Below are positions 24,106 through 35,579 of a stretch of DNA of 40,665 bases, one piece after another. The stretch lies in IMG/VR virus record IMGVR_UViG_2660238524_000003; one strand, written 5' to 3'. A program made the translations under genes and the position numbers. Under the pieces are notes generated by a model. That model had not been told where the DNA came from, ran no database searches, and was given only the letters and a program-made list of their open reading frames with translations. Source of the stretch: a virus. Its lineage: Duplodnaviria; Heunggongvirae; Uroviricota; Caudoviricetes. Numbering within the stretch: position 1 is the stretch's first letter; each line of letters opens with the position of its first letter.

Positions 24106-25857
24106 ATGATTCAGGACGCTTTTGTGCGCCAGCGTGCGCGGCAACTTTACTGGCAGGGTTATCCGCCCGCAGAAATATCACGTCTGATGGGAATAAACCC
24201 GAACACGATTTATGCGTGGAAAAAACGTGACCAGTGGGATGAAACGCCACCCGTGCAGCGTGTCACGCAGTCCATCGATGCGCGCCTCATCCAGCTTACT
24301 GAAAAACAGAATAAAACAGGCGGTGACTTTAAGGAAATAGACCTGCTGACCCGGCAGCTTAAAAAGCTGCATGATGGCCAGCCGGATGTGATGGCCGCAG
24401 GAAAGAAAGGCCGGGCGAAAAAACTCAAAAATCATTTCACGCCGGAACAGATTGCCGCACTGCGGGAAAAAATCATCAGCAGGCTGGAGTGGCATCAGCG
24501 GGGCTGGTTTGACTCCCTGACCCTTTGCAGGGAAGCCGGGATACGTAACAGGATGATCCTGAAATCCCGACAGATTGGGGCGACCTGGTATTTTGCACAG
24601 GAAGCACTGCTGATGGCGCTGCGTGACGATGTGGCGCAACCTTACCAGCGTAACCAGATTTTTTTGTCTGCGTCGCGTCGTCAGGCGTTCCAGTTTAAAA
24701 GCATTATTCAGAAGGCCGCGGCTGAAGTTGATGTGGAGCTGAAAGGGGGCGATAAAATCATCCTCTCCAACGGCGCAGAGCTGCATTTTCTCGGCACTTC
24801 TGCTGCGTCGGCACAGTCCTATACGGGCAATTTTTATTTTGATGAATTTTTCTGGGTCAGTCGCTTTGCTGAACTGCGCAAGGTGGCTGGCGCTATGGCA
24901 ACCCTCAGCGGACTGCGGCGCACCTACTTCTCCACGCCATCCACCGAAACGCACGAGGCATACGCCTACTGGAACGGCGACCGCTGGAACGAGAAAAAGG
25001 CCTCGCATAAACGCCAGCGTTTTTCTGTGGACTGGAAAACGCTGCATAATGGGCTTATCTGCCCTGACCGGACGTGGCGGCAAATTGTCACGCTGGAAGA
25101 TGTGGTTAATCACGGCTGGAAACACACCGATATCGACGAAATTCGTGATGAAAACACCGAAGACGAGTTCCTCAATCTCTATATGTGTGAGTTTGTCCGC
25201 GAAGGGGAATCGGCATTTAACCTGAATATCCTGATTGGCTGCGGTGTTGACGGATACGACGACTGGAAAGACTGGAAACCTTTTGCTCCCCGCCCGATGG
25301 GGAATCGTCCGGTATGGATTGGGTATGACGCAAACGGCAGTAGTGGCAACGGCGACAGCGGCGCTGTGTCCGTGGTGGTTCCTCCGGCTGTTCCTGGCGG
25401 CCGTTTTCGAACGGTGGAGACGCGACGCGTTCAGGGGCTGGAGTTTGAAGAACAGGCCAGAGTCATTGAAGAGTTCACGTGTCGCTACAACGTGGAACAC
25501 ATCGGCATTGATGTGACGGGCGGGAACGGGGAGGCTGTTTATCAGATAGTGAAGCGGTTTTTCCCTGCTGCTATTCCGTACACCTTCACGCTGTCATCAA
25601 AACGGTCGCTGGTACTGAAAATGCTGCAAATAATGCGTGCCGGGCGGTGGGAATACGATCGCGCCGAACGCGAGCTGGTCGCGGCCTTTAACGCCGTGCG
25701 TAAGGTGAAAACACCGGGCGGCTTTATCACTTACGAAACGGACCGCGCGAGGGGGATCAGCCACGGCGACCTTGCGTGGGCAACCATGCTTGCTGTCATT
25801 AACGAACCAATTGGCGGCGAAGGAGAAAACGAGCGTTTCATGGTTATGGAGTTCTGA
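24106..25857 (+). CDS. terminase ATPase (large) subunit P
   Basis: 583 aa, size and position as P2 gpP. Confidence 0.93.
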   Translation: MIQDAFVRQRARQLYWQGYPPAEISRLMGINPNTIYAWKKRDQWDETPPVQRVTQSIDARLIQLTEKQNKTGGDFKEIDLLTRQLKKLHDGQPDVMAAGKKGRAKKLKNHFTPEQIAALREKIISRLEWHQRGWFDSLTLCREAGIRNRMILKSRQIGATWYFAQEALLMALRDDVAQPYQRNQIFLSASRRQAFQFKSIIQKAAAEVDVELKGGDKIILSNGAELHFLGTSAASAQSYTGNFYFDEFFWVSRFAELRKVAGAMATLSGLRRTYFSTPSTETHEAYAYWNGDRWNEKKASHKRQRFSVDWKTLHNGLICPDRTWRQIVTLEDVVNHGWKHTDIDEIRDENTEDEFLNLYMCEFVREGESAFNLNILIGCGVDGYDDWKDWKPFAPRPMGNRPVWIGYDANGSSGNGDSGAVSVVVPPAVPGGRFRTVETRRVQGLEFEEQARVIEEFTCRYNVEHIGIDVTGGNGEAVYQIVKRFFPAAIPYTFTLSSKRSLVLKMLQIMRAGRWEYDRAERELVAAFNAVRKVKTPGGFITYETDRARGISHGDLAWATMLAVINEPIGGEGENERFMVMEF

Positions 25858-26903
25858 TGAGCAGAAAAAATAAAAAAGTGCGCATGAGTTCACGCATTGA
25901 TCTCGCTGATGCGCTCAGGAAAGAATCATCGCTCAGTGCATTCACATTTGATGGTCCTTATCGCCTGACCGGGCATGACCTGCTGGACAATATGTACTGT
26001 GCTGATAACGGGCGGTGGTATGAAACCCCGGTGGACTGGTACGGTCTGGCAAGAGCAGCCCGGCAAACGTCCTGGCATCAGTCTGCGCTTTACTTTAAGC
26101 GCAATGTATTACTCGGTTGCTACATCCCGCACCCGCTGCTTTCCCGGCAGGATTTCTCGGCGCTGGCGCTGGACTGGTTTGTGTTCGGTAACGCATTCCT
26201 TGAGCTTCGAAGCAATATGCTCGGCGAACCGCTTAAATTACGGCACGCCCTGGCGAAATACATGCGACGCGGAAGCGATCTTGAATCATGGTGGTATGTG
26301 CAGGATGGCAAGGACGCGTTTCAGTTTCGTCCTGGCAAAGTGTGCCACCTGATGAATCCGGATATTAACCAGGAAATCTACGGCATGCCGGAATATCTTG
26401 GCGCATTACTCTCGGCCAGCCTTTCTCATTCGGCGGACATGTTCAGAAAACTGTACTACGACAACGGATCCCACGCCGGGTGCATCATCTACATCGGTGC
26501 AGCGCAGGTAAACCGCGAAAGCATGGACTCCCTGAAAGAAACGCTACAGGGGGCACGTGGTGGTGGTGCGTTTAAAAACGTGCTCATTCATGCGCCCAAC
26601 GGGGGCAAAGAGGGGGTGCAAATTTTGCCGTTCCAGCAGATCACCGCAAAAGATGAATTCATGAATGTTAAGGCGGCATCCCGTGATGATGTGCTGGCTG
26701 CGCACCGCGTTCCGCCGCAACTGATGGGGGCGATGCCGGGCGAAAAAAGTGCGTTTGGCGATGTGGAGAAGGCAGCGCGGGTTTACGCAATTAACGAGCT
26801 GATGCCCGTTATGGAGGCTATGAAGCACATCAATGACTGGCTTGGCGAAGAGGTGATCCGTTTTAACTCTTATGCTCTTCTTGATGAAAAAACAGCCCCG
26901 TGA
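25857..26903 (+). CDS. portal protein Q
   Basis: 348 aa, size and position as P2 gpQ; TGATG overlap with P. Confidence 0.93.
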   Translation: MSRKNKKVRMSSRIDLADALRKESSLSAFTFDGPYRLTGHDLLDNMYCADNGRWYETPVDWYGLARAARQTSWHQSALYFKRNVLLGCYIPHPLLSRQDFSALALDWFVFGNAFLELRSNMLGEPLKLRHALAKYMRRGSDLESWWYVQDGKDAFQFRPGKVCHLMNPDINQEIYGMPEYLGALLSASLSHSADMFRKLYYDNGSHAGCIIYIGAAQVNRESMDSLKETLQGARGGGAFKNVLIHAPNGGKEGVQILPFQQITAKDEFMNVKAASRDDVLAAHRVPPQLMGAMPGEKSAFGDVEKAARVYAINELMPVMEAMKHINDWLGEEVIRFNSYALLDEKTAP

Positions 26904-26917
26904 TGGGGCTGTCCTTT

Positions 26918-27442
26918 TTACCAGAGTTGAACCATTTTCTGGGTGCCGTCAGGCTTGAGATTATCAATTTCAGAGAGAACGTAATATTGAATGGCTTCAC
27001 AAACGGTGGTGTAGGGTGAATTACCTTCTTTAAGTGGCACGATATTATTATTAACGCGAACCTGTATTTCATCGTTATACATTGCGATCGAAACAGGAGT
27101 GTGCACGAACGCGACTTCGCCAGGTGTGTCGTCAACCACCGTTTCAATACTAAAAGTCAGTTTTCGCTCATCATTGCTGCCCCGTGCTTTGGGGGTAGCG
27201 GCAGGGATCTGGGATAAAGGCATTCTGCGAAATCCTTCGGCTGCTTCCAGTCCGCATGAAACGTAATGCTGGCGATTACCGTCGCTATCTGTCCAGGTCT
27301 GTGATGGCAGCTCCAGCGAGATTTCATAAGCATCAACAATGCCCTGGGCAAGGCGTACAAGCGGGGTCAGATCTTCATTGCGGCGAAAGCTCTCCTTTAC
27401 CTGCTCCCGTTTTTCTCTTAACTGCTTGTAATTAATGACCAT
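26918..27442 (-). CDS. hypothetical protein (cargo between portal gene and cos-like region)
   Basis: 174 aa from ATG 27442 with GGAGG RBS 8 nt upstream; no family recognised. Confidence 0.6.
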   Translation of the reverse strand: MVINYKQLREKREQVKESFRRNEDLTPLVRLAQGIVDAYEISLELPSQTWTDSDGNRQHYVSCGLEAAEGFRRMPLSQIPAATPKARGSNDERKLTFSIETVVDDTPGEVAFVHTPVSIAMYNDEIQVRVNNNIVPLKEGNSPYTTVCEAIQYYVLSEIDNLKPDGTQKMVQLW

Positions 27443-27817
27443 AAGACAGCCTCCATTGATTTCTTTGCTCGTATTTTGCACTTATGAAGTATGGTCGGCA
27501 AGGTGCCGTATCGCTGACGCGCTTCGCTTGTCTGCTGCTTCGCCGGGGCATAAAAAATTTATGCCCCGGCTCTCCAGCTCCTGTATCAATCAGATAATTT
27601 CACGACGCCTTCCAGTTTATCGCCACCATCGACGGTCAGACTCTTACGCAATTCCACCGCGTTGACTGCATGTTCTCGCTGCCTCAGTGCGATTTTGACG
27701 GCCTTACCTTTCACCCCATCAAATCAAAAGCCCTCACGCCTTTTTCATGCTCAGCGTGAGAAATATGGCCATTCTGTTGTGTCTCTGCGACATCGTTCAG
27801 GGAATGCTATTTACCCC

Positions 27818-27835
27818 CTGAAACGCGGGCTGTTC
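27818..27835 (-). other. candidate cos-like sequence
   Basis: - strand GGTGACGGGGGAACAGCC loosely resembles the P2 cohesive end as recalled (GGCGAGGCGGGGAAAGCAC). Confidence 0.2.
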
Positions 27836-27941
27836 CCCCGTCACCTGCGCGCAGAAAAAGCGCGTTTTTTTGTGCACGCACGGATCCTTGACGGATCCAG
27901 CCGCCATGCGGGCCGGAAGGGTAAAAAGTCGTTCAAAAAAA

Positions 27942-27968
27942 TTGTGCAAATTTGTGCACTTTTGTGCA
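27942..27968 (+). repeat. three tandem 10-bp TTGTGCA repeats
   Basis: TTGTGCA at 27942, 27952 and 27962 (exact 10-bp phasing), just upstream of a TTGACC -35-like element. Confidence 0.7.
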
Positions 27969-27988
27969 GGTAAGCATGCCTATATATT

Positions 27989-28020
27989 TGACCGTGGCTT
28001 GCCTTTGATGTAGTTTATAC
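27989..28020 (+). promoter_or_regulatory. candidate promoter of cargo locus
   Basis: TTGACC followed ~17 nt later by TAGTTT/TATAC. Confidence 0.3.
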
Positions 28021-28068
28021 GTCACAAAAACCACAAAACGTGGTTATGATTTCTATGAGGGGGTTGAT

Positions 28069-28104
28069 ATGAAAAAAATGTATGATGAATTTGATGGTTT
28101 CTAA
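28069..28104 (+). CDS. 11-codon leader micro-ORF (MKKMYDEFDGF)
   Basis: GAGGGG RBS 6 nt upstream; followed 20 nt later by a strong terminator. Confidence 0.3.
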   Translation: MKKMYDEFDGF

Positions 28105-28123
28105 GCTACGTTGACCTCTAATG

Positions 28124-28151
28124 AGGCGGGGATTTGCTCCCCGCCTTTTTT
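28124..28151 (+). terminator. rho-independent terminator upstream of cargo gene
   Basis: gaggcgggga/tccccgcc 8-bp GC stem followed by T6. Confidence 0.7.
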
Positions 28152-28165
28152 ATGGATGAAATAGG

Positions 28166-28663
28166 ATGAACCCAATAACACTACAAATCATCAGCAATGC
28201 TATTGTTCTGCTTGGCGTTTTGGTTGCCATTGGAACCATTATCTACAATGTGCGTACCGCAAAAAAAACTCAAACGGCCAACTTTCTTTTTGAGAGTCGG
28301 CAAGATATGCAATATATAGAGTCATTGCATACCCTGAAACAAGTGCATCGTTCAGGCAAATCATTTCGTTCTTATGTTTTTCCTTGTGATGGTTGCATAA
28401 TAACAGATGAAGAAATGGCCGAGCGTCGAAAATTTCAATATATTTTAAATTTTTACGAGCGAGTTGCTGTAAGTATTCGTGAAGGTATTTATGATGAAAA
28501 AATGATAAAAAGAACATCTTACACAACAGTTGTAGAGACATATGATATTGCCGAGCCATTAATTAAAGCAATCAGAGAAAGCATTAATTCGGATACTACA
28601 TATCAAGAATTCGAATGGTTAGTAAGAAGATGGAAAGCTAATCCTTTACGGAAAAACAAATAA
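28166..28663 (+). CDS. membrane-anchored hypothetical protein (cargo gene 1)
   Basis: 165 aa; N-terminal TM helix (ITLQIISNAIVLLGVLVAIGTIIY) then a charged domain; AT-rich codon usage unlike the phage core. Confidence 0.7.
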   Translation: MNPITLQIISNAIVLLGVLVAIGTIIYNVRTAKKTQTANFLFESRQDMQYIESLHTLKQVHRSGKSFRSYVFPCDGCIITDEEMAERRKFQYILNFYERVAVSIREGIYDEKMIKRTSYTTVVETYDIAEPLIKAIRESINSDTTYQEFEWLVRRWKANPLRKNK

Positions 28664-28874: not shown

Positions 28875-28882
28875 TATTAATC
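28875..28882. repeat. IS1 target-site duplication (left copy)
   Basis: TATTAATC immediately left of the IS1 end. Confidence 0.85.
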
Positions 28883-28897
28883 GGTAATGACTCCAAC

Positions 28898-29401
28898 TTA
28901 CTGATAGTGTTTTATGTTCAGATAATGCCCGATGACCTTGTCATGCAGCTCCACCGATTTTGAGAACGACAGTGACTTCCGTCCCAGCCTTGCCAGATGT
29001 TGTCTCAGATTCAGGTTATGCCGCTCAATTCGCTGAGTGTAACGCTTGCTGATTACGTGCAGCTTTCCCTTCAGGCGGGATTCATACAGCGGCCAGCCAT
29101 CCGTCATCCATACCACGACCTCAAAGGCCGACAGCAGGCTTAGAAGACGCTCCAGTGTGGCCAGAGTGCGTTCACCGAATACGTGCGCAACAACCGTCTT
29201 CCGGAGCCTGTCATACGCGTAAAACAGCCAGCGCTGGCGCGATTTAGCCCCGACGTATCCCCACTGTTCGTCCATTTCCGCGCAGACGATGACGTCACTG
29301 CCCGGCTGTATGCGCGAGGTTACCGACTGCGGCCTGAGTTTTTTAAATGGCGGAAAATCGTGTTGAGGCCAACGCCCATAATGCGGGCGGTTGCCCGGCA
29401 T
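28898..29401 (-). CDS. insB: IS1 transposase InsB
   Basis: 167-aa ORF recognised as IS1 InsB; made as an InsAB' frameshift fusion. Confidence 0.9.
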
Positions 29402-29595
29402 CCAACGCCATTCATGGCCATATCAATGATTTTCTGGTGCGTACCGGGTTGAGAAGCGGTGTAAGTGAACTGCAGTTGCCATGTTTTACGGCAGTGAGAG
29501 CAGAGATAGCGCTGATGTCCGGCGGTGCTTTTGCCGTTACGCACCACCCCGTCAGTAGCTGAACAGGAGGGACAGCTGATAGAAACAGAAGCCAC
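29320..29595 (-). CDS. insA: IS1 InsA
   Basis: 91-aa ORF ([23 protein letters not shown]...) recognised as IS1 InsA. Confidence 0.9.
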
Positions 29596-29650
29596 TGGAG
29601 CACCTCAAAAACACCATCATACACTAAATCAGTAAGTTGGCAGCATCACC

Positions 29651-29658
29651 TATTAATC
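29651..29658. repeat. IS1 target-site duplication (right copy)
   Basis: TATTAATC immediately right of the IS1 end. Confidence 0.85.
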
Positions 29659-29721
29659 GTTCTATCATATATTTCAGGTCACTTCATATCTATTCTATCA
29701 TCCTGTTTAATTGAAAAATAC

Positions 29722-30404: not shown

Positions 30405-30719
30405 TTATTCTGGGAATAAGGTCTGAATATTCTTTTTTATTTTATAAAAATTGCATTCAACTCCGCTAGGCTGATTATCCTGGTATGTTTCCTTGATGCT
30501 AACGGTATTGAAGGGGAGGTTGTCCTCTGGCCATTCGGCCATCCAGTAGGCAAATGCTGGGTTGCGCTTTATGAGCGCTAGCCCAGCCAGAAAGGCCGCG
30601 CGTTGCGCGCGGCTGCGTTCGGAGGCTGGCAGGCTATCGAGGTAATTGCACGCCTCCTGTTCACTCTTGACGGCGGCGGGCTTCAGATAGAAACTTATCC
30701 GTCTGGTTGGTGTCGTCAT
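30405..30719 (-). CDS. ParR/StbB-like centromere-binding adaptor
   Basis: 104 aa from ATG 30719 (AAGGAG RBS), directly downstream of the ParM-like gene; ...LDSLPASERSRAQRAAFLAGLAL... resembles R1 ParR as recalled. Confidence 0.65.
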   Translation of the reverse strand: MTTPTRRISFYLKPAAVKSEQEACNYLDSLPASERSRAQRAAFLAGLALIKRNPAFAYWMAEWPEDNLPFNTVSIKETYQDNQPSGVECNFYKIKKNIQTLFPE

Positions 30720-30723
30720 TGGT

Positions 30724-31683
30724 TTACTCCTTGTCCATTGCGTACAGCCCATTAACCAGAGCAAACTGTGGCACCCCGTCCGCGATGAAAGTCGCATTAA
30801 CTCCGCAGACTTCGCGGATAGCGGGTGCCACAATCTCCGCCCCTCCACCGACAACCATCACCCGCCCGTAACCCGAAAAAACCGCCAGCGCGCGGATCAC
30901 GCGTTGTTTCAGTGTTTCTTCCTTTTCACGAATAACCGCCATCAGGCTGGCGTAATGCGCGTCATTGTGGATGTGCTGGCGCAGCCAGGCTTCATCATGG
31001 CGATGTTCGATAATGGTATTGGCGATGTGGTGACTGGTGCGCATACCGTTAGTGGCCATCACCGACAGTACGGCATCGGCCATCAGGGAAACGCCTACGT
31101 GTGGATCGCAAAACACCTGGCTGATACCTGCCAGTTGCCCTTGAACCTTTGCCACATCCAGCGTGGTTCCGCCTAAATCCACAATCAGCAGGGATTCAAA
31201 CGGACTCATGTCAGCCAGTGCTTTAAAGCCAGCCGGAATGGATTCAGGCATAACCCGCACGTTACGGATAGTGAATGCTTCGCCGTTCTGGTATTCCACC
31301 GGGCGCATAACGTTCGCTTTTTTGCGGTTGATGTTGGCCATGTCCGGCTGTGCGTTTGTGTCGAAATACTCGCTCAGTGGCAGGGTGACAACCACATCCA
31401 CCTCCTGTGGCGTGATGCCTGATTTGACCAGCGCGTGATGAATGGCGATTACATTCACATCGCTGTACTGGTATTGCGTGTCGGTCGTCTGGACAAAGCG
31501 ATCGCTAACCGGATCAAAACCATAGCGCACGCCATCAAGCATGTAGTTCGCGGGCTGCATGCCACCGAACGGCGCAGACCATTCCGACTTGAAGCTGTTC
31601 GGGCTGATGGCGTTGCGGCGTTCGCCATTCTCAGTCCATGCCAGCTTGATGTTGGTGGAGCCGTCGTCGATACAAATTTTCAT
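30724..31683 (-). CDS. ParM/StbA-like actin-family partition ATPase
   Basis: 319 aa; N-terminal MKICIDDGSTNIKLAW and later blocks (VMPESIPAG, IVDLGGTT, VGGGAE) match the ParM/StbA actin fold. Confidence 0.85.
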   Translation of the reverse strand: MKICIDDGSTNIKLAWTENGERRNAISPNSFKSEWSAPFGGMQPANYMLDGVRYGFDPVSDRFVQTTDTQYQYSDVNVIAIHHALVKSGITPQEVDVVVTLPLSEYFDTNAQPDMANINRKKANVMRPVEYQNGEAFTIRNVRVMPESIPAGFKALADMSPFESLLIVDLGGTTLDVAKVQGQLAGISQVFCDPHVGVSLMADAVLSVMATNGMRTSHHIANTIIEHRHDEAWLRQHIHNDAHYASLMAVIREKEETLKQRVIRALAVFSGYGRVMVVGGGAEIVAPAIREVCGVNATFIADGVPQFALVNGLYAMDKE

Positions 31684-31714: not shown

Positions 31715-31826
31715 TTTACGGGATTCTGAAATCCCGTTTTTGCCTGTTTTGTGCGCGCTTCATATATCGCTGCGCGTTTTTTGCTCATTTACGGGATTCG
31801 TAAGTCCCGTTTCTGTCTGTTTTTTG
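31715..31826. repeat. two ~39-bp palindrome-containing direct repeats upstream of the ParM-like gene
   Basis: TTTACGGGATTCTGAAATCCCGTTT (31715-31753, intergenic) and TTTACGGGATTCGTAAGTCCCGTTT (31788-31826, within the 3' end of gene A), 73 bp apart. Confidence 0.6.
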
Positions 31827-34582
31827 TTTCCACTGGTCAGGCCACCCCGCAGCAGGTCTGCTTTGCGGCTGGCGCGTTCAGTGGTTTCACTGATTCTCTG
31901 TGCGTGCTCTGCGTCGCGGATGGCGCGCAGCATGTCAGAAAGCACGGTAACGGGTGTTTTCATGGTGTTCTGGCCCTGCTGAAGTGTGGATGCCAGGCGT
32001 GCGGCGGCTTCAGGGTCTGATGCCCCCAGCTGTGCCAGATAGCTGGCGACCGGGTTATGGCGGATCTCCGTGCTGCTTACGCCATGATTACGGCTCAGGC
32101 GCTGCCAGAGCTGCGTGATTCGGCTGTCCGGGCGGGTATCCGGTTTGCGTACAATTTCAAATCCCTGCGGTGCAATGATGCTGCCGTCAACGTACAGACT
32201 GCCGCCCCGTAACAGGTGCTGCATCTGTTGTTCACCGATATGCAGGCCGAGAGATTCAGCAGACTCCCGCCATTCTTTAGCGAGTAATTCGTGGTTATCA
32301 GGCAAAGGCCGCTGCTGTTTGCGGCTCTGTGTCCAGCTCTGCATTTCATCGCTGCTGTTTTTTGCCTGTTTGTCACGAAGCGAACGCATCAGCGCCCGGC
32401 GTTCGTGTCGTTTCAGTGAGCGCATCCATTCGTTCACTTCAACGCCGTCAGGGAGCTGCGGCCACGGTGCTGGCCGTTCTTCCGGCTGTTCTGTCCCGTT
32501 GTTGTCCGTTTCCTGTACACGGGGACAGTTATTGCCACGAGTCCAAGGGGCGGCAGGGCCGCCCTGAAGGTCAAAACCATTTTCGCGGGCGCTGTCTTCC
32601 GCTTCCGGTTTACGTCTTACCAGCTTCCAGTTATCCGGATGCGTGCACACACGGGAGGATTCCCCGATGAGTGGTGACCAGATCCCGTAAATCTGTACGC
32701 TCTGTTCGCCGTAATCGTTCAGCTCATCTGCGAGGTCGTAGGCGGTGCGAATCAGGTAGTCCTTGCGTGGAACAAGCACGCCACCCTGTTTTTCAATGTA
32801 GGTGGCAAAACACCCGGCATCGGCGGCAGCGAGTACCGCATCCATTGCATCATCTTTCAGCCGTTGCGGGCCTTCCGGATTGCGTGCCATCTGGCTGGCA
32901 AGGCGGCGCAGTTCACGCCACACCTGACGGGAGGGGATGCCAAAGAACTGGAACTGACGGACCCGGTGAAGGCGCGCCCAGCCGATGGCGCGCTCCACGC
33001 TCTCGGCCATTGATTTTCCGGTTTCGTGGTCCACGCGTGGCTTGCCCGTTTTCGGGTCGATGCCATCCACGGCGCGGCTGTCCAGGTTCTTTCCGATGTA
33101 GGTGGCGATGTAGCTGGTTGGCGTGCCTTTTGAGCCGTCGACATACTCCACCTTAAAGCGCGGAGTAATATCATTGCCCAGCTCGTGGCGGTCTTCCTGA
33201 ATGGCAATATCGCGGGTATGGGACACAATGGTGTCGATTTCTTCCGGATGTGCAAAGACCATCATATGCCAGTGCACGGTGCCGTCATGATGAGGCTCCA
33301 CCGTGCGGATGCCATACCAGCGCAGGCCGTCGCGGTTCAGTTTTTTGCGGACCGCCGCAAAAAACGTGTTAACCAGGTAATCGCTGGAGTCGCGCATTGT
33401 GGCCCCGTTCCATTTGGGATTCGGATGACCGTTCTCCGTTGTGGCGTGGTATTTTGACGGGCAGGTGACAGTCAGAAACACCGCTTTGTCGCCACGGGCT
33501 TCGGCCAGAAGTTCCAGTCCCTTCATGGTGGCCATCATTTCTGCCTTACGGTGAACCGGGTTACTTACTCCCGCGTAATACACTGTCTCGAGATCAATCG
33601 TGAACCCGTCTTCATTTTCCAGCATGAAACTTTTCAGGAAATCGCGTGTTTTCTCGCGCTGTGCGCGAAACTCGCTTAACGCGTCCTGGCTCAGATAGGG
33701 TGATGTTTTTCTGGAAACCAGACAGGCGGCGCGGAGTTGTTCTTCTCTCCACTCGCAACGTAACAGCCACAGTTTGCGTTTCCACCATTCCGCACAGGTC
33801 AGGCGAAGGATTGCGCCCGGCAGCAGCTCCGTGTCCGGTTCGTTCCTCCGGTCTTTGTCTGTTGTCAGTGCGTCATAATGTGGAGGCATGGCGTGCAGGT
33901 GTAACGCCATGCGGGCCAGCATCTGATACGCCTTCAGGGTTACATCCATGGTCAGCTCGCCATCGGTCGCGCCAAAGCCATCGCAGAGTTTTTCGAAGGT
34001 GCTGCTGAACATCGCCGCCGTCATGGTGGCCAGCGTCTGTATCTGGTGTTTGTTGAGCTGCGGCAGGTAAAGCAAATCGTCCAGGCGTTCGCGTCCGGCA
34101 AGGGAGCGATAACCCGGTGTCAGCCAGCGTCCGTCAGTGCTATCCAGACGTTCGAATATTTTGCGCAGGGTTCCGCGTGCATAGCGTTCCGCCTGCCAGC
34201 TCTTTTTGCCTTTCCGGCGATCGGCTTCCTGTTTTTTGCGCAGGAAGGAGAGGTGGCGAATAAGCGGATCGCGCAGATAGGACGGCAGCAGGCGCAGCGA
34301 GGCCATGGCTTCATCCACCGCGCCACGTGCCTGTTTTCTGGCGTCTCCTGCCAGTGTGATGGTTTTGTCCTGTTTTTCCTGTGCGTCCAGGCTTTTATTA
34401 ATCAGGTTGCCCAGCGGCGTGGCTGAGAACGCCGCATCAGCCATTTCCTGGCGGCGCTCGTTCTCTGCCCGGTAGGCATCCAGCCAGGAGGAAAGCGCGG
34501 ATTCAGGAGCGGGGATCCCCGTTCCTTCACGCCCCACTGCGTGGCGCGGTTGTTGCCAGTCCCTGAGGTACTCTGCCGTCAT
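31760..34582 (-). CDS. replication initiation endonuclease A (rolling-circle)
   Basis: 940 aa; H-x-H metal motif (HWHMMVF) and position as in P2-like phages. Confidence 0.88.
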   Translation of the reverse strand: MTAEYLRDWQQPRHAVGREGTGIPAPESALSSWLDAYRAENERRQEMADAAFSATPLGNLINKSLDAQEKQDKTITLAGDARKQARGAVDEAMASLRLLPSYLRDPLIRHLSFLRKKQEADRRKGKKSWQAERYARGTLRKIFERLDSTDGRWLTPGYRSLAGRERLDDLLYLPQLNKHQIQTLATMTAAMFSSTFEKLCDGFGATDGELTMDVTLKAYQMLARMALHLHAMPPHYDALTTDKDRRNEPDTELLPGAILRLTCAEWWKRKLWLLRCEWREEQLRAACLVSRKTSPYLSQDALSEFRAQREKTRDFLKSFMLENEDGFTIDLETVYYAGVSNPVHRKAEMMATMKGLELLAEARGDKAVFLTVTCPSKYHATTENGHPNPKWNGATMRDSSDYLVNTFFAAVRKKLNRDGLRWYGIRTVEPHHDGTVHWHMMVFAHPEEIDTIVSHTRDIAIQEDRHELGNDITPRFKVEYVDGSKGTPTSYIATYIGKNLDSRAVDGIDPKTGKPRVDHETGKSMAESVERAIGWARLHRVRQFQFFGIPSRQVWRELRRLASQMARNPEGPQRLKDDAMDAVLAAADAGCFATYIEKQGGVLVPRKDYLIRTAYDLADELNDYGEQSVQIYGIWSPLIGESSRVCTHPDNWKLVRRKPEAEDSARENGFDLQGGPAAPWTRGNNCPRVQETDNNGTEQPEERPAPWPQLPDGVEVNEWMRSLKRHERRALMRSLRDKQAKNSSDEMQSWTQSRKQQRPLPDNHELLAKEWRESAESLGLHIGEQQMQHLLRGGSLYVDGSIIAPQGFEIVRKPDTRPDSRITQLWQRLSRNHGVSSTEIRHNPVASYLAQLGASDPEAAARLASTLQQGQNTMKTPVTVLSDMLRAIRDAEHAQRISETTERASRKADLLRGGLTSGNKKQTETGLTNPVNEQKTRSDI

Positions 34583-35257: not shown

Positions 35258-35579
35258 GGTGTGGCCCCTTGTGTAGTAAGTTGTGAAAACTCACCATCCA
35301 GAGCTGCGAAACTGTGGGTGGCGAGACGTACGAGGTTCGCAGTACCGGCTACACAAGAACCCGGCCCGACCGAAGTCGGCCCCGTACGCCCCGCCATAAT
35401 TCTGACGCGAAAAAAACGTGGCAATACAGTACGCACAAAAAAACCGCTGGCGCGGTTGTGCGCTTGTGTAGTCAGCAGGCTGCGAAACCCGGCACCCGTT
35501 TTATGAGGTGCAGCGGAAATGTAACCTGACTGATTGCGGCATGGCAAGCGGTTTTTTTGTGTGTGCATGCTCTGGTTTC
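35258..35579 (-). ncRNA. structured non-coding element with nested complementary repeats
   Basis: About 320 bp without a credible ORF. CTTGTGTAG and GCTGCGAA(A)C each occur twice direct (35268/35463; 35303/35479) and once inverted (35349-35357; 35335-35342). Confidence 0.4.
35433..35457 (-). terminator. intra-operon rho-independent terminator
   Basis: aaccgc-tggc-gcggtt hairpin followed on the - strand by UUUUUUU. Confidence 0.6.

Follow-up and report, generated by a model that had tools for sequence, protein, structure and literature searches.

The gpA-gpQ interval adjacent to cos is a recognized hotspot of P2-like phages, in which 1,650 gene arrangements have been described (Rousset et al. 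2022, PMC9122126). The hotspot was confirmed by a 2026 study, in which only 15-32% of unknown P2 hotspot proteins were classed as antiviral by machine learning (PMC13586616). In P2 itself, old and tin occupy the gpA side of cos in this hotspot. On the other side, the portal gene Q starts 187 bp from cosL, which bears out the premise of an earlier note on the DNA analyzed here that Q adjoins cos in P2, and the space between Q and cosL holds only a terminator. The cos of P2 is marked by the 19-nt cohesive end GGCGAGGCGGGGAAAGCAC. Satellites of the P4 type must carry the packaging signal of their helper. Morons, in the concept of Hendrix and Juhala, are autonomous promoter-gene-terminator units inserted between conserved genes of temperate phages.

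The stretch of DNA that we analyzed (40,665 nucleotides, hereafter the window) represents a P2-family prophage inserted between serS, at the window start, and dmsA. Among named phages, the P88-like ones (Xuanwuvirus, Peduoviridae) are nearest to it, and a prophage at 0.95-0.99 Mb in Escherichia coli ST131 strain JJ1886 is essentially identical to it, with the same order of portal, ORF174 and gpA. Rfam placed two RNAs in the prophage early region above gathering score, a C4 antisense RNA (35314-35401, minus strand) and isrK (35437-35511, minus strand). The genes that frame the locus, and the open reading frame that is our subject, are the following.

24106-25857, plus strand: large terminase (clear Pfam match)
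25857-26903, plus strand: portal gene, gpQ homologue (Pfam Phage_portal, E 8e-18)
26918-27442, minus strand: ORF174 (WP_000236495.1; PHROG 5091), ATG start, 174 aa
27450-27454, minus strand: Shine-Dalgarno sequence GGAGG, 7 nt 5' of the ATG (read from sequence)
31760-34582: gpA-type replication gene (position in the window)

We consider it likely that ORF174 is a real gene and optional cargo, and that it is located on the portal side of cos in the known hotspot. The well-initiated frame of 174 aa that had been noticed beside the portal gene was recovered on the minus strand, convergent with the portal gene, and only 14 bp separate the two stops. Its longest reading would start from a GTG at 27481 and encode 187 aa. 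The product matched the PHROG 5091 profile over its full length (residues 1-168 against positions 1-164 of 164; E 1.4e-67), as did all 46 of the aligned relatives. The family is annotated as 'function unknown'. Searches of Pfam, NCBIfam and PADLOC gave no match to ORF174, so that the former statement that no family could be recognized stands for these three collections and falls for PHROG. The 46 relatives produced nothing in Pfam and PADLOC beyond one marginal PADLOC match (E 0.009).

Homologues with 46-96% identity are found in E. coli, Salmonella and Trabulsiella, and a profile search of 1.84 billion representative proteins retrieved 89 representative relatives, mostly of 155-175 aa. The family shares the motifs Y..SL.LP...W.D..G....YV and F.I.TV.DD.P, while its alignment contains no conserved stretch of 7-10 residues and no conserved catalytic motif. 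Comparison of ORF174 with the Salmonella copy yielded pN 0.25 and pS 0.78, a value at which synonymous sites are saturated, and the Salmonella and Trabulsiella homologues differ with a dN/dS of 0.16. These substitution patterns indicate that ORF174 is under purifying selection.

The encoded protein (19.8 kDa, pI 5.0) is of the soluble alpha+beta kind, and no signal peptide or membrane segment is apparent in its sequence. Homology and structure searches, which the earlier note had proposed as a check, led to PHROG 5091 and to a confident AlphaFold2 model from the 46-sequence alignment (pLDDT 90.5, pTM 0.80). The predicted fold consists of two N-terminal helices, an antiparallel sheet of about 8 strands, and a C-terminal helix. 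A profile search of the PDB with the family returned nothing below E 0.09, and no solved structure corresponds to it. Designed helical repeat proteins retrieved by a PDB sequence search (E 2.7e-7) were rejected as relatives; the match is an artefact, since it sums three weak matches of about 11 bits to a repeated unit. Note that in one protein of 3,099 aa (P0049) 10 separate stretches match family profile positions 90-135, the central beta-hairpin region; this may be a repeat protein built of a similar hairpin unit.

The comparison of the window with P88, base by base, defines the segment to which ORF174 belongs. Nucleotide identity is 98.7% through the portal gene to about 26860-26865, is then lost, and resumes at 27514 (CTGACGCGCTT...), in a stretch that holds the portal stop in P88. 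The segment in between is an indel relative to P88-type phages that brings a new C-terminus for the portal protein, a terminator, and ORF174 with its promoter region. The last 12 or so codons of the portal gene are supplied by this cassette, and the protein ends in ...YALLDEKTAP* here versus ...YALLDTQPTS* in P88. The signals of the cassette are listed with their coordinates.

26868-27513 (approximate boundaries), no strand: accessory cassette of about 645 bp
26892-26912, no strand: hairpin of a bidirectional intrinsic terminator, ACAGCCCC-GTG-ATGGGGCTGT, set between an A-run and a T-run
27473-27501, minus strand: putative weak sigma-70 promoter of ORF174 (TTGCCG, 17-nt spacer, CAAAAT)

The terminator scan gave the hairpin a stem of 9 bp with 6 GC pairs, and the same element was recovered as inverted repeat I3. 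It overlaps the portal stop codon, fills the 14-bp gap, and is shared by the portal gene and ORF174. The sequence at 27473-27501 is probably the promoter of ORF174 and a weak one: the Salmonella homologue has the same TTG..-N17-CAAAAT arrangement upstream, amid otherwise diverged DNA, and in a consensus promoter scan the candidate scored 8/12, below threshold, and was not called. No Ogr-type box (TGT-N12-ACA) was found at the expected distance upstream of ORF174. Two matches to this pattern occur in the region, at 27775 and 28009, and are by our own estimate not clearly above chance. Read in this way, the cassette would constitute a self-contained transcription unit made of a probable weak sigma-70 promoter, GGAGG, the open reading frame and a bidirectional terminator, and the same terminator would also end the terminase-portal operon. 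The G+C content of ORF174 (47.4%) differs modestly from that of the terminase (54.1%) and portal (52.9%) genes.

The distribution of the cassette is that of an optional element. ORF174 is absent from P88, P88_4B11, 520873, 500465-2, Chuche and Shae_phiSM, in which the flanks are 93-99% identical to the window and the portal stop directly precedes sequence equivalent to window positions 27514 onward. It is present in 397 of 5,426 complete E. coli genomes (about 7%), and the flanking sequence or P88-like prophage type occurs in about 1,120 of those genomes, about 725 of them without ORF174. A tblastn search found it in only 4 of 50,697 phage records, and P2 has no counterpart between Q and cosL. 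The absences in the six relatives and in most genomes with the prophage type show that it is not a conserved gene of the P2 family, an identity that would have been fatal to the idea of cargo put forward earlier. That idea is further strengthened by the precise indel relative to P88, the terminator of its own, the lower G+C, and the occurrence of relatives at moron sites in unrelated prophages. On these sequence comparisons, the ORF174 cassette is optional cargo, a single-gene 'moron' of PHROG 5091. It was most likely gained or exchanged by recombination via the conserved portal and cos sequences that flank it.

Two segments follow the cassette.

27518-27807, no strand: non-coding spacer from the cassette/portal to cos, specific to the P88 lineage and in all P88-like records
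27808-27968, no strand: putative cos (packaging) region, a 160-bp non-coding block conserved while its flanks diverge

The 27808-27968 block is nearly invariant in P88-like phages and in prophages of Salmonella (L010) and Trabulsiella (L008), and the Salmonella P2-like prophage that carries it has a portal protein only 75% identical. It recurs at 82% identity in a P4-like satellite (L012). Furthermore, LR595891, the only linear record of the group, starts and ends at the equivalent of 27923|27924. Because of this conservation across elements and one record end, that of LR595891, we place the putative cos in 27808-27968. The satellite-like element is located beside hpt in E. coli PEC122 (NZ_CM168021.1, 3881050-3893204) and encodes an integrase, a toprim primase, an Icd-like protein, ogr/delta and its own 'P2 family major capsid protein', a capsid gene being unusual for a satellite of the P4 type.

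Three sub-blocks of the region are invariant (27829-27852, 27867-27881 and 27910-27968). The last contains three TTGTGCA repeats with a 10-bp spacing (27942, 27952 and 27962), which could form a binding array for the small terminase subunit. All three repeats are kept unchanged in P88 and in both prophages (Salmonella and Trabulsiella), and the satellite shares the first two. The palindromes and the cos-like G-rich motif that had been pointed out earlier are present as well: a perfect 13-bp inverted repeat in the spacer (27542-27570), a GC hairpin (27847-27865), ACGGATCC occurring twice at 27880-27898, and the G-rich motif (about 27825-27846) at the very start of the conserved block. Rfam returned nothing over 26800-28300. 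Two P88 annotations within the spacer, 'gp21' and 'gp22' (27518-27807; L002 4273-4564), are probably no genes, given that they fail simple coding tests; the gp21 equivalent has an in-frame stop in the window, and 6 of the 11 differences of gp22 from P88 fall at codon position 2.

The putative packaging region resembles the cos of P2 in that it is non-coding, follows the portal gene and is common to helper and satellite. However, it is without the cohesive end of P2: the 19-mer is absent from the window and from the Salmonella and Trabulsiella prophages, even with up to 3 mismatches. It is also farther from the portal stop than the 187 bp of P2, and its triple TTGTGCA repeat was not found in that form in P2. 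A short likeness links CCGTCA(CCT)GCGCGCAG here with CCGTCAGCGCGCAG, which abuts the P2 nick, and the orientations of the resemblances to the P2 cos flanks conflict.

With cos in this block, the order portal gene, ORF174, cos that the earlier note had proposed holds for E. coli, and it holds equally for Salmonella, the position of cos being taken from conservation. Conversely, cos cannot lie between Q and ORF174, since the gap is just 14 bp, and the conserved block begins some 370 bp past the ORF174 start. The distance from the portal stop to the block is 300-480 bp in lineages that lack the open reading frame versus about 900 bp here, where the cassette is present. Positioned between the portal gene and the putative cos, the cassette would fall at the edge of the gpA-gpQ hotspot. 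Its interval (gene A ... cos ... portal Q) and its variation in presence and absence are those of the hotspot, in whose published catalogue it also figures: Table S5 of PMC9122126 includes the exact protein WP_000236495, as 'hypothetical', among hotspot loci, together with a DUF4760 gene, ParM/StbA, Plasmid_stab_B and WP_000193205 as its neighbors, and the protein is not among the tested systems of Table S2. Consequently, the 'second likely cargo site' previously suggested is indeed a cargo site, but it is neither separate nor new, being the portal-side edge of the published hotspot. Unlike old and tin of P2, which are on the gpA side, and unlike the 187 bp that separate cos from Q there, a cassette has here been wedged in on the portal side and rewrites the last portal codons.

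Other cargo is found across cos. A DUF4760 gene of low G+C (35%) occupies 28166-28663. In front of it lie a promoter-like site (28021-28050), a mini-ORF of 11 codons (28070-28105, MKKMYDEFDGF) that has a ribosome-binding site, and the hairpin of a strong terminator (28123-28147), and the layout of 28021-28147 resembles a leader-peptide attenuator. A complete IS1 (28884-29650), flanked by the 9-bp target duplication TATTAATCG (28875-28883 and 29651-29659), splits a PHROG 12528 gene (28703... and ...30321), whose intact counterpart in JJ1886 is WP_000193205. ParM and Plasmid_stab_B partition genes (30405-31683) lie between gpA and the hotspot cargo. Such genes occur in about one quarter of P2-like phages, for which plasmid-like maintenance has been suggested as possible (PMC9122126).

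The relatives of ORF174 occupy varied contexts. The Salmonella homologue is located between the portal gene and the putative cos, as in E. coli, and the Trabulsiella relative (46% identical) follows gpA on the opposite side of cos, with HicB and Phd/Fic modules after it. Relatives in lambdoid prophages were found directly after antiterminator Q (L021), between a NinG-adjacent gene of 207 aa and the holin gene (L016), and, in another prophage, between lysis genes and a lambda-type terminase. Another relative sits by itself in a chromosomal islet. These sites have neither a partner gene nor an upstream element in common, and the small ORFs found upstream are unrelated. PHROG 5091 is a stand-alone module. 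In having a single gene, its own terminator, a probable promoter of its own, deviating G+C and absences in close relatives, the cassette resembles a moron, and members of the family are found at sites typical of lambdoid morons, next to antiterminator Q and in the interval from the lysis genes to the terminase. The putative promoter of ORF174 may, as in morons, be active in the lysogen.

What the protein does can be approached from its predicted structure and its contexts. The matches of the modeled fold, none of them significant, are confined to interaction, chaperone or immunity domains of a non-enzymatic kind. The product, a small, soluble, mildly acidic alpha+beta protein, would most likely act stoichiometrically by binding another protein. 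On the most economical reading, ORF174 would be a small binding protein in phage-host or phage-phage conflict. Within this frame, we tentatively favor a prophage-encoded exclusion or defence factor directed against competing phages or satellites. No PADLOC defence model matches ORF174, and literature searches on the accession, on DUF4760 and on the cos of P88 returned no functional information.

A helper of the phage's own lytic cycle, acting for example in counter-defence, is a possibility to which we give less credence, and other host modulation accounts for the remainder. In a specific version that we regard as rather doubtful, ORF174 would serve counter-defence or host takeover, being produced while the phage grows and neutralizing a host protein through binding. 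The lambdoid relatives lie in the late operon in sense orientation, positions that favor late expression, and there is a weak fold resemblance to the inhibitor-type AcrIIA11 and to the PI31 FP domain. However, these fold matches are not significant, and P2-like phages carry the gene in antisense to the late P-Q operon, with no Ogr-type box at the expected distance and with what looks like a plain, weak promoter of sigma-70 type. The plain promoter, the antisense orientation and the missing Ogr box together favor expression in the lysogen in P2-like phages.

It is unlikely, to a marked degree, that ORF174 is part of a multi-gene system with the DUF4760 and PHROG 12528 genes across cos. The three proteins do appear together in more than 160 rows of Table S5 (PMC9122126) and again in phages 569R5, 705R2 and PV468777, but this co-occurrence is largely clonal, at 100% identity, and the Salmonella, Trabulsiella, lambdoid and chromosomal relatives are without both neighbors. 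Furthermore, the G+C contents diverge (47% in ORF174 versus 30-35% in the neighbors), cos and terminators separate the genes, and in the window IS1 disrupts the PHROG 12528 gene, whereas ORF174 is intact.

More improbable still is an accessory of packaging or head assembly tied to the portal and cos, such as a cos-binding or portal-associated protein. ORF174 adjoins the portal gene less than 400 bp from cos in two diverged lineages, in E. coli and Salmonella, and a variant of the portal C-terminus travels with it. Yet it is missing from most P88-like prophages and from P88, which the abstract of PMC5285337 describes as inducible and infective. Relatives are also carried by lambdoid phages with unrelated types of terminase and portal, by the chromosomal islet, and, in Trabulsiella, across cos, and the protein bears no resemblance to known morphogenesis families. 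Finally, that ORF174 is a chance open frame and no gene is already refuted by the conservation data, in that the lack of a curated family match and an annotation of only 'hypothetical' weigh little against conservation of the family over its full length, a strong ribosome-binding site, a fold predicted with high confidence, and restrained non-synonymous change where synonymous change is saturated.

As a genome feature, the cassette adds little to what has been published, given that both the hotspot and the presence of the protein in it were already on record; ORF174 is an uncharacterized moron, and with the idea of the cargo site published before, the finding is an ordinary one. It nonetheless refines the picture of the hotspot, in which cargo can sit on the portal side of cos and replace the last codons of the portal gene together with its terminator. 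As a by-product, the analysis delimits a candidate cos for the P88 lineage, distinct from the cos of P2. The gene itself is present in about 7% of complete E. coli genomes, including pandemic ST131 (the JJ1886 copy is identical), and its family populates accessory sites of both P2-like and lambdoid prophages. ORF174 is a reasonable and cheap candidate for a defence or counter-defence screen, in which its interest would be low to moderate. We finally advance, as a conjecture that is rather unlikely to hold, that PHROG 5091 may represent a new class of single-protein, non-enzymatic immunity factor in several types of temperate phage. Such a factor would bind a protein of a competing phage, or of a satellite with the same cos, and would thereby block it. 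If this were true, the placement of the gene on the portal side beside cos would allow its exchange along with the packaging signal.
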